Notes: generated by a model not told the origin, from the letters alone. Positions 55,589 through 62,964 are shown, counted from the stretch's first letter. The stretch: DNA of 64,000 nucleotides from an uncultured Planctomycetota bacterium (GCA_963823665.1 CAWGMQ010000002.1:160001-224000); one strand, 5' to 3'. Made by a program: numbers and translations.

Positions 55589-56155
55589 TCACTCCCTCCC
55601 AACCCCAAGCGCATCTGCCACCCGATTAATATAATTAAACCAAGAAGCAATCAGCGTGATCTGCAAAATCCCCCGATCATCAAACCCAGCCGCTCGCAGT
55701 CGCTCATGATCGCGCGGCGAGACCTTGGTCGCATCTTTTGTCAACTTCACCACATAATCGACCATCACCCGCTCCGCCTCGGTGATCGGTGCCGTTTGAT
55801 AATTCTCTTTGAGCGCCTCGATGAGCGCATCATCCAGAGTCACCCGACGCAGAAACTCTGCGTGAGAGACAATTCAGTAATGGCACTTATTTGTCAGCGA
55901 GACCATCGTCGCGATCATCTCGTGCCCCCGGCGCGAGAGCGGCAGCTCCGGCGACATGAGAGCGCCGAAGGTCGAAAACGCATGATGGAGCGCCTGCGGA
56001 ATCAGCGTGTGTGAGGCCACGATCCCCGGCAGGCCCTGATCAAGCTCCTGCACCGGCTGTGAGTACTCAACGGGATAGAGCCCCCGTTGATCCGCCATCG
56101 CCTTGAGCAACTTCTCGTCCGCGTCTTCCAGTGGAACGGTACGAATCCAGGCCAT
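55589..56155 (-). CDS. AhpD/carboxymuconolactone-decarboxylase-like peroxidase, probable selenoprotein (CxxU, UGA at 55874-55876)
   Basis: ORFs 55874..56155 and 55589..55843 are in the same frame, separated by one TGA: ...[31 protein letters not shown]...DYVVKLT...[18 protein letters not shown] hairpin follows the UGA. Confidence 0.85.
55839..55873 (-). promoter_or_regulatory. Candidate bacterial SECIS element
   Basis: UGA-AUUGUCUCUC-ACGCAGA-GUU-UCUGCGU-CGGGUGAC: perfect 7-bp upper stem, G as first loop base 17 nt after the UGA, and an imperfect lower stem. Confidence 0.7.
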
Positions 56156-56176: not shown

Positions 56177-57718
56177 TCAAGAGTGAGCGCCGATCGAGGG
56201 CACCGAAGGTTTTTCGTCAAGTGTCGAGTCCGGGTTCATCATCTCGGTCGCCGGATCAGAGGAATCACTCCCAGTCGCCGCGCCGCGATCCGGGATCACC
56301 CAACCCGCAATGGGAATCCCAAGCACGACGACCATCAACCCGGCTACTGACGGCGGCACGCTGAGCAACCTCCACACAATATCGCGCCAGGGAGAGCCAG
56401 CCGCCAGCATGCGAGCCGTCTCCATGCTCCACCCGCTGCCGGCAATGTCTCTTGCGGTCTGCAAGAGTATCACGGCGACGATGGGAAGCAAAAAGAGCAG
56501 GGGAGAGATTGGGTAGCCCGGCGGTGCAAGTGATCGTTCGCGCGGGTGGCGCCTATGCAGGACGAAGATCCCCACCACGGTGAACGCCAGGAAAACAAGC
56601 GTGGGCACCATGAAGTACGCCAAGATCTGCCCGAAGCTGCCGGAGAGTGCCAGCGCAGTGGCAAGCGTGGTCTGCACCAAGGTGGCGCGGGCAGGAACGT
56701 CGCGCCGCGGGTCAACAGCCCCGAAGCTCGCGAAAAAGACTCTATCCCGCGCCATGGCAAAATAAACGCGTGGCGCGGCCATGAGTATGGCCGCCAGGCT
56801 TCCAGCCACCGAGATCAACACGACAAGTGAAAAGATAACCTCACCCCACCGTCCGAAGAGCGCATCGCCGGCAAGTGCGGCGAATGCTGTTTCCTTTGCG
56901 CTCGCGATTCGCTCAGGTGCGACGAGGTAAAGAAACACCAGGCTCACCGCAACGTACACGACCGTGACGATCGAAACCCCGAGCACCAAGGCACGCGGCA
57001 TCGTGCGCTTCGGGTCGCGAACCTCACCGGTGATCTTGCTCGCATCCCACCATCCTGCAAATGAAAAGAACGCGCCGACCAGAGCAAATCCCAGCGCGGG
57101 GCCCAGCGGATCCGATCCAGGTCTTTGCGACCAGAACGGTGACAGGTTATTCCATTCGCCCCGGCCCAGGCCGAAGCCCCATAGTACGAGAAAACCAAGT
57201 AACCCCAACTTCAGCGCGGCCAGCGCCCCCATGACCCGTGAACCGGGGGAGATGCCAAGCATGTGCACAGCCGCAAGCATAATGATCGACCCGACTGCGA
57301 CGGACTTCTGCCCCCACGGCGCAAGCGGTAGAAGATGCCCCGCATAATCGGCCAAACCCACGGCTAGCATCGCAGTCAGGCCTGGATCCGTGACCAGCAG
57401 GGACAGCCACCCGTAGAGAAACGCCATTCGCTTGCCGAAGATCTCGCGCAAGTAAACATACGTGCCACCTGCTTCCGGGTAGCGAGCCGCCAATGATCCA
57501 TAACAGAATGCGCCGCCGACCGTGGCCACAGCCATCGTCAGCCAGACCACCAAGAGCCAAAATGGTGACCCGAGTGATTTGGCCATACCGGCCGGAGTCA
57601 AAAAGATCCCAACGCCAATAACGTTCCCGACAATGAGCGCAGTCGCCGTAGCCAGCCCTAACCGGCGCGGTAGACTCGACCTTTCACCAGCTTCTGTAGC
57701 CTCGTTTGCGTTCGTCAT
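56177..57718 (-). CDS. APC-family (LAT/SteT-like) amino acid permease
   Basis: LPRRLGL...[52 protein letters not shown]. Confidence 0.92.
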
Positions 57719-57763: not shown

Positions 57764-58832
57764 TCAGTAATCCGAGCCGCCCACGATCTCCCCGCCATTC
57801 CGCGTGCTCAAAGCTGCGCCAGATCGGCAGCGACACCGAATCTTTGATGAAACGAACCGAGCCGTCACCAAACGCGACATTGACTCCTGCTGGGTGCATG
57901 CTCGAAGGCGGGAGCTGAACCGCCATGTTGGCCATCGAGCCTCCCATCATCATGCTGCCGCCCATCGAGGCACAGGTCCTCGTGTTCGGCGTCCCAACGT
58001 GGTTATAAGTCGTGCACGTCATGTCGCCGATGCACCAGGCCGCCCCCATCCAGCTCGTCAGCGGCATGGCCATTGTCATGTCGAGCAAGGTGCAGTTCTG
58101 CCAGGTCTGGTCGATGGTCATGGCGCTGTTCATCATATACATGTCATTCTTGATGTCGGGCGATCCCTGGCCGCGCCGCCGTTCGCTCAGAAAGGCCGTC
58201 TGACTGGTGCCATCAGTCATACTCGCCAGGTTGATGCAGCTTCGGTTATAGAGCGGCCCCTGAGGAAGATAACCCGGTGCAACGGTGCTGGGCGTTTGCT
58301 GGCACGCGTCGCACAGCCACGACCCTTCATTTCCGTAGTAATTGTTGCCGCCGTTCCAGCCGGCTGGGCTGATTGACCCGGCCGGATCCGACGGGCAAAC
58401 GAACGCGGCGATCGCGATGCGGCAGACGGTGCTGTTCTCACGATTGGGATCCTGAAACGCCATCATGAATCCCATGTTGTAGGAATCCATGTTGGGGATC
58501 TCCGGCGGCAGATTGAAGTTGGTCGCGTTGAACAGGCTCGACTGCTCGATATACCCCAGGATCTGGCTGTGGGTCGACCACCGGGCCGAGACCGGCGCGT
58601 TCATGACCTCCGTCATGTAGTTGTCTCCCTTGCCGAACGGAAGGGACCGGAGCGCGTTCTCGTAATTGGCAACCGCGAGTAGGAACTGCTTGAGGTTGTT
58701 CGTGCACTGGATGCGGCGAGCAGCCTCCCGTGCCGATTGCACGGCCGGCAAAAGCAAGGCGATCAGCACCGCAATGATGGCGATGACGACCAGAAGCTCG
58801 ATCAAGGTGAACGCAGAACGACGGGAATTCAT
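57764..58832 (-). CDS. DUF1559 prepilin-type (type IV pilin-like N-terminus, H-X9-DG C-terminus) protein, Met-rich; 1-nt frameshift near 57811
   Basis: [76 protein letters not shown]. Removing one T from TTT restores [19 protein letters not shown]. Confidence 0.92.
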
Positions 58833-58982
58833 GGAATCCTCTCCTCTCGAATGATCGATATGATGATAATAAAATCTGTCTGGGTGAACGCGCAGCGCCC
58901 CGCGATCATGCAACACAGACCGCGCGCCGTTATGGCGAATAAACCGGTTCATCCGGCACGAGCGCGCCGATTAAGACCGACG

Positions 58983-59050
58983 CCCCGAAGGGGCTCAACA
59001 ACATAGCCCAGGGCAACGTCCTGGGTTCCCCACCCAACGCCCTGGGTTCC
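58983..59050. repeat. REP-like palindromic element
   Basis: CCCCGAAGGGG hairpin, ATAGCCCAGGGCAACGTCCTGGG hairpin, and a second partial CAACGCCCTGGGTTCC copy. Confidence 0.55.
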
Positions 59051-59054
59051 GCGC

Positions 59055-59492
59055 TCAGACCGGAGGAGGATGAAAAATGGACGGCCGCGCGCTCCGCGAC
59101 CGCGGTGTCACCTCGCCCGGCACTGCCTCCATCGAAACGGTGACTCGGTTAAAGAGTGCCGCCGCGAGGTCTCCCCAGTGATCAGACCCCTCGGAGCTCG
59201 GAGACGTGCTTGGACTTGGAACAGGGGGAACCTGCCCGGAACAACTCAGGCCCGAGCAGGGCCGTTGCATCGGTGAACGCGATGGGTGCACCAGATCTCC
59301 GGAATCCAGAGAGGCCAGGTCGCCCACGATCAGACGATCAAGCTGATTCCAATCGAGCGGCCGAGCCGACTTCGACGCGACCAGATGATTGCATTCGGCG
59401 CGTGCCGCCCGGGGCGCAGCGTGCGAGAGCACCAGGAGCAGCAGAACGGCTGCTCCCCACTTCGCCACAGGCTTGACGAAAGCTGCTCTCAT
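59055..59492 (-). CDS. Putative secreted leader / ribosome-arrest peptide (signal peptide, CxxxxC, C-terminal IFHPPPV)
   Basis: Signal-like KWGAAVLLLLVLSHAAPRAARA-EC, PCSGLSCSG, Pro/Ser-rich spacer, ending RPSIFHPPPV*. Lies upstream of and co-directional with the DUF1559 gene. Confidence 0.65.
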   Translation of the reverse strand: MRAAFVKPVAKWGAAVLLLLVLSHAAPRAARAECNHLVASKSARPLDWNQLDRLIVGDLASLDSGDLVHPSRSPMQRPCSGLSCSGQVPPVPSPSTSPSSEGSDHWGDLAAALFNRVTVSMEAVPGEVTPRSRSARPSIFHPPPV

Positions 59493-59646: not shown

Positions 59647-61114
59647 CTAGCCGATATACCCCAGACCGCTTAATCGCTCGCGGACAATCGTCTCATCGTC
59701 CGATGTGTAATCTCCATTCGGCAATTCACCAATATGTTGACCGGCCGACCAGAGACCGCCCCTGCATCGAAGACGGGATCTCGTATCCCCCCAGCTCCAT
59801 GAGCGTGGGTGCAATGTCCAGCAGCCGTGCCCCGCTGATTTCACCCTGAAGCGGGCTGTTGGAGGCCGCCAGGATGAACGAACCAAACTGGGCGTGGTTG
59901 CAGTCGTCCGGCCCCGTGTCATTTTCAAGGACGTGAATCGTCGGATAACCCACCCCGCCGATCGATCGCCAGTAGAGAGCGCCAAAGTGCACGATCAGGT
60001 CGGGCGCGACGTTTTGCACGCTCTTGTAAATCTCTTCCGGCTTGAAGACCAGGGTTCCGAGAGGTTTGCCCGCGGGATCGACTGTTGCCTCGAACTTCAC
60101 TTTGATCTCATCGCGGAATGGCTCGTACTCGCTTGGATCAATCAACCCCTGGGGCTCTCTCCCCTTGACATTCATGAAAACGCGGGCGTAATAGCCTCCC
60201 TCGCTCCACACCCTGGTCTTCTCCCAATCCACGTCAAGCCTCGCGAACGGAGTCACCTCCTTGGGATAACTCTTGAGCACGAGCAACCCTTCACGCACCA
60301 GCCATTCGTTCACGCAAAAGCCGCCATCGAGCCGCTGCGCGCCATGGTCGGACACGATCAGCACGATCGTGTCGTCGCTCAAGAGCTCGAGAACCCGCCC
60401 GATCTCCGCGTCGATATGCCGGTAATAGTCGTGGATTGTGTCGCGGAACGGGCTGTCGCTCTCGTGCAGAACGTGCAGCGGGTCGTGGTATTTCCAGAAC
60501 CCATGATGGATGCGGTCCTGCCCGATATCGACAAAATGGAAATAATCCCACGGCTCATTCGCAAGCAGATGCCGCACCACCTCGAACTGCACCCGGCTCA
60601 TGGCGAAGATCTCGTCCCGCAGCCAGGCCTTGTTGTCCGTCCGGAAGCCCCGCACGTCGACGGGATAATGTCCCACGAGCTGACGGATTTTCTCCGAAAG
60701 CTCAGGTGGATGTGTGAAGATGTTCTTGTCGGTATCAGGCGTCAAGAAACAGCTCACGCTGATGCCGTTGATTCGCCGCGGTGGGTAGCCGGGTGGAATG
60801 CCGACGATGATCGACCGCTTGCCTTCGCGCGCCAGATGGTCCCAGATCGCCGGCGCGGTGATCGAGCGCGCCCCAGCGATTTTCAGGCCGTCGTAAGAGT
60901 GATCGGCTCGATTACGGAAGCCGTAGATACCCAGCGTGCCGGGGTCTTGGCCCGTTGTCATGCACATCCAGGCAGGAACTGTGATCGGTGGGATCACGCT
61001 TTCCAGGCGTCCATAGGCCCCGGCGTCCATCAACCGCCTTATGTTCGGTAAATCCTCATACCCGAAGAGAAGCTCGGGCGCGGCACAGTCGAGCCCCAGT
61101 ACCAAGATCTTCAT
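59647..61114 (-). CDS. AlkP-superfamily type I phosphodiesterase/nucleotide pyrophosphatase-like protein; 1-nt frameshift near 59745
   Basis: MKILVLGLDCA, SVIPPITVPAW, DRIHH, VSDHG, DDCNH. The family-typical tail YTSDDETIVRERLSGLGYIG* is in the shifted frame, ending at 59647. Confidence 0.88.
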
Positions 61115-62964
61115 GATAAAAGCGAGTCTCCTTCCATCGCCGGCCCCTTGGGCACACCCAGAGCAGCCAAGATCGACGGCGCCAGGTCAAGCAGCCGAGC
61201 GCCCTCACGACGAAACGGCCTGTTCATGAATAAGACGCCCGGAACCCGATCGGGGTCGATGATGTGGTCGCCACTCCACTTCTTTGTGTTGTCTTCAAGC
61301 TGAGATTCCGCGATACCCCCCATCGACGACGACCACGAAACCCGATACCCGGGTGCAAAATCCACCAGCATGTCGGGCGCTTCCTCGACGAAGGCCCCGT
61401 GATATACAGCTTCGCGCGGCTGCACGCGCACAATCGCGGTGCAATTACTGCGTTCAGGGTCCACCAGTCCGCTCAACCCTTGCCCGATCGCGGCCTTGAC
61501 CGAGCCCGCGTCGTCGCAATGAACGATGCCCTGAGCCTCACGTCCTTTGAGATTCAAATAGATTCCACTGAGCCCGATGGCATAAGCACGCGTATGCGTC
61601 CAATCGACGTGTCGCAAGTAATCGCCCGCGGCTTCTCCTGGTTCAATACCGGGCTCGAGCGCCAGGAAACCGCAGTCGAGCAGCCACTTGTTCAGATGAA
61701 CCCCGCGCTCGAAGTTATTGAATCCGTGGTCGGAGAGCGCGATGAAAAGCGTTTCGTCGTCGCTGAATTCAAGTGCCTTGCCGACGATCGCGTCGCAACG
61801 ACGGTACGCGTCGTCGATGGCGTGCGCGAAGTCAGGCTCCGGCGGCCTACCGCGGAGAGCTGGATGGCCGCTCTGGCGATATCGCCAGAACAGGTGCTGG
61901 ATCCGGTCCGGCGTATCGAACAAGCAGTAAAAGAACCCCGATCGAAACGAGTCGAGCTCGTGCAGCATCATCGCCTCGCGATCGCGCCAGGCGATCGCGC
62001 ATTGATCCAGAAACGCCTCCTCCGAGATTCTCTCGTTGTTCAGCCCGGCGTGATCCTCGACCATCCCGGTCGTGTAATAAAGGCCGATCCGCGCAGCCAG
62101 GTCTCCTGCATACTCGGGAGGATCGCTGATCGGAAAAAAAGGTGCATCGGGATCGAAGTTCACCGGCGAGGCGTAAACCGCCAGATCCGGTTCGATCCGC
62201 ACCACATGAAACCGAACAATTCCTCGAATGGACTGCAGCAACCCCAGCTTGAACTTCACCCGAACCCAGTCGCTGAACCCGCCCTGCTTGACGACAAGCT
62301 CCCGCGGTGTGCCTTCCGACGAAACGATGATTCGCTGCGCCTCGCGATCCACTCGAAACGTGATCTCGACGCGCAGATCACCACGCGTCTTGGGATTGCG
62401 CGGACCAATCACGTACGTCGAGTAAGTCCCGTCTGCTCCAGGCTCGATCCGGACAACGTGTTCACTCTCGCGCGGCTGCACTCCTTTGCTCGTCGTATAA
62501 AACGTCCCGGTTCCCAGACCGCCTCTCAAATCCGGTACGCCCATTCCGGAGAGCATTCGCCCGCGCGTGGCGTCCGGCGGGAAAGTACACGGACAGCGCA
62601 GGATCGTCGAGCCGATGCCCGCTGACTTGAGAAGATCCCAGAGCGGAACTCCGCGGCGCAAGTTCACGGCTTTGGGCGGCAGGAACGCATTCTTCTGCTC
62701 GTACCGATTCAAGCCGAAATCCGGCAGATAGGTTCTGGGATCGCGGCGCAGGAAGTCGAAGATTCCATGTCCTCCCGGGTTGGTCCCTGTTGCGAACGTG
62801 GACCAGGCAACCGGGGTCTGGGCCGGGCGAGTGGTGGCAACCCGAGCAAACCCGCCTCGTTCTTTCAGTCGAGCCAGGTTGGGCAGTTGGCCCGCGTCCA
62901 GCAATCCCGTCACGATGCCGGGGTCAAGTCCGTCCATCCCGAGGACGATGACCTTCTTGATGAT
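61111..62964 (-). CDS. AlkP-superfamily type I phosphodiesterase/nucleotide pyrophosphatase-like protein
   Basis: KKVIVLGMDGLDP, PAQTPVAWSTFATGTNPGGHGIFDF, DRIQH, LSDHGF, WSGDH. The conserved N-terminus extends upstream of the ATG at 62937 to an ATC that follows GGGAGG. Confidence 0.88.
   Translation of the reverse strand: MIKKVIVLGMDGLDPGIVTGLLDAGQLPNLARLKERGGFARVATTRPAQTPVAWSTFATGTNPGGHGIFDFLRRDPRTYLPDFGLNRYEQKNAFLPPKAVNLRRGVPLWDLLKSAGIGSTILRCPCTFPPDATRGRMLSGMGVPDLRGGLGTGTFYTTSKGVQPRESEHVVRIEPGADGTYSTYVIGPRNPKTRGDLRVEITFRVDREAQRIIVSSEGTPRELVVKQGGFSDWVRVKFKLGLLQSIRGIVRFHVVRIEPDLAVYASPVNFDPDAPFFPISDPPEYAGDLAARIGLYYTTGMVEDHAGLNNERISEEAFLDQCAIAWRDREAMMLHELDSFRSGFFYCLFDTPDRIQHLFWRYRQSGHPALRGRPPEPDFAHAIDDAYRRCDAIVGKALEFSDDETLFIALSDHGFNNFERGVHLNKWLLDCGFLALEPGIEPGEAAGDYLRHVDWTHTRAYAIGLSGIYLNLKGREAQGIVHCDDAGSVKAAIGQGLSGLVDPERSNCTAIVRVQPREAVYHGAFVEEAPDMLVDFAPGYRVSWSSSMGGIAESQLEDNTKKWSGDHIIDPDRVPGVLFMNRPFRREGARLLDLAPSILAALGVPKGPAMEGDSLLS

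Follow-up and report, generated by a model that had tools for sequence, protein, structure and literature searches.

The systems closest to the locus described here are three kinds of small leader peptide. CutF of Rhodobacter capsulatus (Ozturk et al., PMC9973294) performs its sensing in the periplasm, and its response has been modeled as one to disulfide formation versus Cu binding (bioRxiv 10.1101/2025.02.05.636593). CutF-like proteins have been defined as ORFs of <150 amino acids (aa) with a signal peptide, a PP no more than 15 aa from the C-terminus, and a co-directional neighbor at <1,000 nt; list D of that work, obtained by jackhammer from proteobacterial seeds, consists mostly of Pseudomonadota and Bacteroidota (PMC9973294). 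CruR (Bp2923, DUF2946/PF11162) of Bordetella pertussis is reported to function without its signal peptide (Roy et al., PMC9426467). The third kind comprises the RAPP/RGPP arrest peptides ApdA and ApdP (Fujiwara and coworkers, PMC12992588 and PMC10987492), in which the Arg at -2 is reported to be irreplaceable (PMC12992588). The sequence-only reading of our locus knew of no description of a stalling-type leader paired with a DUF1559 gene, but this pairing has already been catalogued for RAPP leaders, with DUF1559 behind 112 RAPP uORFs versus 68 AAPP uORFs, a 6.5-fold difference (PMC12992588 source data).

We analyzed a window of 64,000 nucleotides of DNA from an uncultured Planctomycetota bacterium, in which that reading had proposed a candidate arrest peptide ahead of a Met-rich, pilin-like DUF1559 gene. 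The features of the locus, counted from the first letter of the window, are as follows.

59055..59492, minus strand: leader ORF P0001, 145 aa, candidate cis-acting stalling peptide (from translation)
59397..59492, minus strand: residues 1-32, predicted Sec-type signal peptide with A-R-A at its end (by sequence pattern)
59385..59393, minus strand: Cys34-x-His36, directly past the predicted cleavage site (from alignments)
59241..59258, minus strand: C79-S-G-L-S-C84, CxGxxC in the family (from alignments)
59175..59177, minus strand: Trp106, 36 residues ahead of the first Pro of the tail (Trp at exactly this position in 87/131 members)
59055..59078, minus strand: I-F-H-P-P-P-V-stop, candidate arrest motif, 58 residues past C84 (from family conservation)
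58833..59054, minus strand: leader-to-gene gap, 222 nt (stop-to-ATG distance)
58981..59025, minus strand: REP-like palindromic repeat in the gap, probably inserted and outside the system (weak Acido-Lenti-1 match)
57764..58832, minus strand: DUF1559 prepilin-type gene of a Met-rich clade, with a one-base frameshift near 57812 (PF07596, PF07963, TIGR04294)
56177..57718, minus strand: amino acid permease of the APC family, second in the likely operon (PF13520; same order in loci L053, L208, and L210)
55589..56155, minus strand: AhpD/CMD-like peroxidase-related gene with an in-frame TGA at 55874-55876, C-H-Y-TGA (TIGR01926 on the second half, below cutoff)

Translation of 59492-59055 on the minus strand confirmed the ORF as first read, 145 aa with a signal peptide, a Cys pair, a Pro/Ser spacer, and the end RPSIFHPPPV*. 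The signal-peptide pattern, read off the sequence, comprises a basic N-region, hydrophobic residues 13 to 24, and A30-R-A32. The Pro/Ser stretch lies C-terminal of PCSGLSCS (C79/C84). The Cys pair is present and conserved, but its first description was incomplete and overlooked a third Cys, C34, which is invariant and accompanied by His36. A lipoprotein reading of Cys34 was ruled out because Glu precedes it here and the -3 position is R/Q/W/E. The ORF has no Pfam match over the cutoff, and AlphaFold returned two helices and otherwise no confident fold (pTM of 0.22); CruR is likewise reported to be without a fold (PMC9426467). A short-read contig, which may stem from the source sample, equals 59028-59202 without differences and spans the leader tail and stop.

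A homolog search with the single leader sequence gave only two hits, and profiles were required to find the family. A 6-row profile matched in 86 of 121 genomes of the source organism's taxonomic family, and a 55-row profile matched in 79 of 151 genomes of the class, spread over 6 of 17 families. With the 55-row profile, none of 187 other-class genomes of the phylum was matched among the 19 candidates scored per genome; one weak match outside the class contains a stop. The family amounts to 1,969 clusters at 50% identity (30-row profile), and the named relatives are Isosphaerales/Isosphaeraceae. Genomes hold 1 to 11 copies, and ours has eight matches at E<1e-11, two of which end ahead of a tail. 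Searching Pfam and NCBIfam against 150 members, we found no family matched by more than one member. The nearest named Atlas clusters to the leader are CzcI, DUF2946, DUF6660, and DUF6769, at 0.88 to 0.89, which is a lead only.

Six residues (C34, C79, G81, C84, P142, and P143) are invariant across 55 sequences from three families, and C79, G81, and C84 are each conserved in at least 90% of 150 members. Relative to the first Cys, Ala occupies -4 in 76% and -2 in 89% of 106 members, and a His stands no more than 6 residues from this Cys in 88 of them. CxG/SxxC was found in 136 of 139 distinct profile hits, and 131 of these 136 carry a terminal [HRD]PP at 55 to 62 residues past the second Cys; several of the five members without a tail sit in frameshift-prone assemblies. 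The tail consensus is I/V/L-F/E/D-H/R-P-P-R, the residue two ahead of the first Pro being F in 66%, E in 15%, and D in 9% (n=108). The sequence-only reading had suggested checking whether homologs keep the signal peptide, the Cys pair, and the terminal FHPP around a divergent middle, and the profiles agree with such a pattern for HPP/RPP tails; homologs lacking the terminal HPP or the Cys pair were looked for in the family alignments and loci and did not turn out to be the rule. At the Cys, His, and Pro positions every synonymous codon occurs among members, so the constraint acts on the protein. Among the 262 Pro codons of the tails, 79 are CCT, versus 274 of 2,230 elsewhere in the leaders, counted over kin that are not independent.

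The distance from the second Cys to the tail is 57 residues in 85 and 58 in 28 of the 131 members, the others having 55 (1), 56 (4), 59 (7), 60 (5), or 62 (1), in a count biased by the building of the profile from members with this spacing. The distance from the first Cys to the Cys pair varies from 28 to 56 under the same profile and thus serves as an internal control against such bias. The loci from other families have the tail at 57 to 60 in 19 of 20 cases, the remaining one being unscored by the pattern. Among 4,789 non-family six-frame ORFs of at least 100 aa, 190 end in [HRD]PP and three of these add CxG/SxxC 55 to 62 residues upstream, two of the three being family members below the score cut. 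With a null of about 1 in 4,789, the leader pattern is found more often than expected by chance. Judged by their sequences, the leaders are a real and widespread family of predicted exported three-Cys peptides.

The co-directional DUF1559 gene does lie 222 nt downstream of the leader, as first read, and across the family the leader stop is 177 to 658 nt (median, 370) from the pilin motif. The match of the REP-like palindrome to Acido-Lenti-1 is weak (27.9 bits, short of the 37 set as gathering score), and its pattern has four exact copies in the genome. Folding of the 321-nt region gave a z of -2.6, to which this repeat likely contributes. A terminator-like hairpin at 59103-59081 was ruled out as an attenuator because it is not conserved; at the leader 3' end, 20 of 131 members reach -12 kcal/mol, and the mean is -7.3 versus -6.7 for shuffled sequences. 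Terminator-like sites within the gap were seen for 6 of 62 led and 1 of 41 unled genes. Occlusion of the Shine-Dalgarno sequence by a stem-loop was also ruled out, as its unpaired probability is 0.37 to 0.40 in 60 led and 0.37 to 0.39 in 36 unled genes, a folding average that could mask single cases. C exceeds G just past the tail in 116 of 131 leaders and over the 40 nt past the stop in 104 of 131, with the reverse in 19, and rho is present in the genome. The long gaps, the lack of Shine-Dalgarno occlusion, the few intrinsic terminators, the family C>G skew, and rho favor a CruR-like Rho route. The present copy has no C-rich stretch or C>G skew after its stop, where the REP-like repeat directly lies; support for the Rho step therefore comes from the family rather than from this copy.

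Both PF07596 and PF07963 (N-methyl motif) score above their cutoffs in the DUF1559 gene, whose family-typical end is in another frame, with the stop at 57764. A same-genus ortholog, 89% identical, is intact at the frameshift site, and other family copies in these assemblies likewise carry frame breaks; the frameshift is therefore likely an assembly error, or else a recent lesion. Contigs from four DNA read sets were compared with the locus, and none reached across the site. The protein is Met-rich, as the sequence-only reading had noticed. It has 24 Met, which make up 7.8% of the residues past the pilin helix, versus medians of 3.2% for 71 led and 2.0% for 50 unled DUF1559 proteins. It sits in an 11-row Met-rich clade with conserved Met294 to Met296, Met300, Met303, Cys174, Cys177, and Cys199; HMBD/CusB-like and CusA/CzcA-like genes come after two genes of the sister clade. 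A tree was built from 125 DUF1559 rows by a quick method, with some duplicate rows and with frameshifted genes excluded. In it, 68 of 71 led rows fall into two neighboring clades (support of 99 and 86), which also take in led rows from another family and, of this genome's 34 unled rows, one. An extra Cys motif, PN...C, is present in 66 of 71 led versus 5 of 34 unled proteins. Altogether this genome has 114 DUF1559 Pfam matches.

Downstream genes were tallied by tblastn behind 62 leaders with at least 4 kb of downstream sequence, 42 of them from the source's taxonomic family, mostly in near-complete genomes, and 20 hand-picked from other families; tblastn replaced operon gene calls by heuristics, which missed or mis-started some genes. 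The leader is near-constantly first in a co-directional operon, and most led genes begin with hydrophobic export signals. The operons contain genes for a small lipoprotein (33), exported CMD/AhpD-like (26), FG-GAP/UnbV (16), small AhpD-like (10), deiodinase-like (10), NMT1 ABC (7), multiheme (7), APC permease (4), CusBA-like (2), YtkA-like (2), and SelD/Rdx (1) proteins. A thiol/selenol oxidoreductase (CMD/AhpD, deiodinase-like, or SelD/Rdx) lies within 6.5 kb of 37 of the 62 leaders, and clearly copper-linked genes occur in 4 operons. The proposed pairing with the pilin gene is thus borne out in part, with DUF1559 first behind 39 of 62 leaders; the pilin gene would not be the sole target, given the oxidoreductases and the other genes that come first behind the remaining 23. 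In the reciprocal direction, matched by hand in five genomes, a leader lies about 5 kb or less ahead of 6 of 7 deiodinase genes (NF038285) and of 13 of 15 places with an exported CMD homolog, and no leader was found for the remaining three.

Several arrangements recur around the leaders. Islands L045-L046 (G062:C195:1-30000), L047-L048, and L053 have 4 to 7 leaders in 20 to 35 kb, each heading its own module of DUF1559-lipoprotein-CMD, deiodinase, or FG-GAP/UnbV genes; in some genomes as many as 7 leaders are packed into 30 kb. A type I phosphodiesterase gene pair lies directly upstream of our leader (59726-62937, minus strand), and in loci L048 and L049 such a pair likewise stands ahead of the first leader in the large clusters; our locus may therefore be what is left of that island. 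In other families (L314, L315, L316, L320, and L327), the leader heads a membrane protein of about 950 to 1,050 aa, with a cytochrome c554 match in L314, and then an FG-GAP/UnbV protein. A small unannotated protein with repeated NQ..I..NQ heptads and no Pfam match recurs just ahead of the NMT1-type ABC transporter in led operons (L047:4065-4433, L221:4490-4720, L228:3346-3810, L234:4229-4624, and L310:2387-2569). In L208, the orthologous DUF1559-permease-AhpD operon has at its end a gene oriented toward it (from 5175 onward on the opposite strand), which we take to resemble DUF692/MNIO enzymes. UnbV/ASPIC and deiodinase proteins together could hint at halogen chemistry, a link on which we found nothing relevant in the literature.

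The in-frame TGA of the AhpD-like gene is kept in five orthologs, each with a hairpin downstream, and selA is present in the genome; the gene at 55589-56155 likely encodes an unannotated CxxU selenoprotein. AhpD-like and deiodinase-like selenoproteins as such are already known. The deiodinase-like neighbor in locus L064 has a TGA at the position of the active Cys. In another locus (L224:2436-3696, minus strand), a SelT/SelW/SelH-family gene and selD are found on the same strand, 3 to 4 kb behind a leader and DUF1559.

We propose that the leader is a cis-acting, CutF-like stalling sensor that would switch its operon on under thiol-reactive stress (Cu/Ag binding or oxidation) during export, a reading that we hold to be somewhat likelier right than wrong. 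Thiol-reactive stress was chosen since the downstream genes point both to oxidoreductases and, through the Met-rich pilin and CusBA, to metal, and oxidants and Cu/Ag both act on cysteines. The nascent leader would enter Sec while the ribosome slows at IFHPP. HPP and PPR are reportedly weak EF-P-dependent stallers, so arrest at the tail would need upstream context. The absence of the RAPP-type Arg at -2 from the tail also speaks against the proposal, as does the small number of operons with clearly copper-linked genes (4/62). Taking general tunnel and channel lengths as the basis, a Cys pair at 57 to 58 residues, about 10 to 12 beyond that of CruR-type leaders, would just clear the tunnel and translocon and be read in the periplasm. 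A normal disulfide, formed either to Cys34 or between the two paired cysteines, would release the ribosome by its pull, and metal binding or mis-oxidation of the leader cysteines would keep it stalled. The stall would act by blocking Rho-dependent termination rather than by melting a Shine-Dalgarno hairpin, the Rho route being more likely because the gap is long. The operon here would then supply a surface pilin-like protein rich in Met and Cys, together with a permease and an AhpD-like selenoenzyme. That the operons are switched on, and not off, is a guess, since CruR and CutF act in opposite directions (PMC9973294).

A broader version, which we regard as doubtful, makes the leaders a class-wide arrest family with the motif [IVL][FED][HR]PPR. 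These would respond to stress from peroxide or hypohalous acid, or to disulfide stress, and not to metal, by reading the oxidation of their own cysteines across the membrane. In place of a transcription factor, they would serve as the shared switch for a multi-operon redox regulon that comprises DUF1559 pilins and AhpD-/deiodinase-like Cys/Sec enzymes. A switch for metal supply in the CruR direction, with a default stall that copper or another metal releases to turn the operon off and with pilin, ABC, YtkA-like, and heme proteins serving metal uptake or cofactor loading, would fit the long gaps and the family-wide C>G skew, which resemble CruR, as well as the NMT1 ABC (7/62), multiheme (7/62), and YtkA-like (2/62) genes and the conserved Met clusters of the pilin clade. 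We think it unlikely, as oxidoreductases dominate (37/62), the copper-linked neighbors include efflux-type CusBA genes, and no TonB receptor, PCuAC, Sco, or CopC was found among the neighbors scanned. Quite unlikely, in our view, is a SecM-like monitor of secretion and oxidative folding, in which the stall would report Sec/Dsb capacity, the Cys disulfide would supply pulling force only, without an external ligand, and the output of exported Cys-rich proteins would be matched to folding capacity. The export signals of most led genes and the extra Cys motifs of led DUF1559 proteins speak for such a monitor, as do RAPP leaders reported ahead of DsbA/thioredoxin genes (PMC12992588); the downstream genes scanned, however, include no sec, yidC, or dsbA/B, and an odd number of Cys together with a His would suit metal binding or isomerization better than one structural bond.

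The signal peptide with Cys3/His and the 1 to 11 copies per genome could also belong to a small secreted product acting in trans, either a chaperone that binds metal or a RiPP-like precursor, with the PP tail kept for stability or processing. We consider this quite unlikely too, given the absence of a fold (pTM of 0.22), the near-constant first position with a long gap, and a fixed residue count across non-conserved sequence, for which a free protein offers no easy reason; a RiPP precursor in particular was ruled out because no modifying enzyme recurs in the operons scanned. That a chance ORF or a conserved non-coding RNA was taken for a protein would agree with the terminator-like hairpin overlapping the 3' end of this copy and with the absence of a Pfam family. 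It is largely refuted by the synonymous variation at conserved residues, the non-conservation of the hairpin (20/131 at -12 kcal/mol), and the motif null, and the chance left to it is slight.

Planctomycete DUF2946-like members were found with PF11162 over the cutoff in 15 of 151 genomes. After exclusion of two spurious rows, all 24 leaders of this set have CxxC, 43 to 44 intervening residues, and R[AG]PP, and a pilin motif lies within 900 nt of 17 of them. PF11162 matched none of 150 members of our family at E<=0.1, and the two sets share no profile similarity (hhalign probability of 1.4%). The last Cys is 57 to 58 residues from the first Pro in our family, versus 48 in CruR and 46 to 47 in the planctomycete DUF2946-like leaders, which indicates that two rulers coexist, of 46-47 and 57-58 residues. 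Our genome itself has CruR-like leaders (CxxC, 43 residues, and RAPP) with a DUF1559 gene of a different clade downstream (L146:4718-5074, minus strand, and L147:437-874, plus strand). It also has a third leader type ahead of two near-identical DUF1559 genes (L144:526-1059 and L150:1863-2393, both plus strand), with a hydrophobic N-terminus, a CxC..C..SCCC cluster, a later C-x5-C, and the end R[IV][DE]RPP. PP-ending leaders precede 4 of 54 other DUF1559 starts screened in this genome. With three PP-ending leader types before DUF1559 in one genome, planctomycetes may use leaders generally to assign signals to pilin-like modules.

If stalling is true, the family would contribute an arrest motif outside the RAPP type, whose ruler is longer and spans the membrane, and would define a regulon in which every gene behind a leader copy is a candidate member. 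It would also suggest a function, in thiol/soft-metal stress at the cell surface, for one subgroup of the very large, uncharacterized DUF1559 family, and the same candidate function for bacterial deiodinase-like and exported AhpD-like proteins.

The leader resembles CutF in its predicted Sec signal peptide, a Cys close to where the mature part begins, a Cys pair in the center, prolines at the C-terminus (this copy even has PPP there), and the first position in the operon, and its length of 145 aa, PP at 142-143, and co-directional neighbor at 222 nt agree with the rules for CutF-like proteins. It differs in having CxxxxC in place of the CxxxC copper motif, with four residues between the cysteines, three Cys instead of four, and the tail [IVL][FED][HR]PP[R]. 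The gaps of the family are hundreds of nt long with no sign of the Shine-Dalgarno-hiding stem-loop of the CutF-like class, led and unled genes being equally accessible on an average that could mask single cases, and its targets are DUF1559 and AhpD/deiodinase-like enzymes, whereas that of CutF is a multicopper oxidase. With CruR the family shares a fixed Cys-to-tail spacing, poor structure, the first place in the operon with a long gap, the presence of rho, and family-level C-rich RNA near the tail, but it lacks CxxC and RAPP. Like ApdA, ApdP, and the RAPP uORFs, the leader is a small secreted uORF with a di-proline near its C-terminus and DUF1559 downstream; unlike them, the family has no Arg two residues ahead of the first Pro and would therefore escape RAPP/RGPP motif lists. 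The proposal of a CruR/CutF-type variant thus stands for the Cys pair, the PP tail, the fixed spacing, and the first-in-operon design, and fails for membership in DUF2946 or the RAPP type. In the literature we found no description of an HPP/RPP, CxxxxC leader family or its redox regulon, though members may figure in list D of PMC9973294. Set against these systems, the principle is known from CutF and CruR, and leaders with another motif have already been listed ahead of DUF1559, while the motif, the longer ruler, and the proposed multi-operon redox regulon appear to be new.
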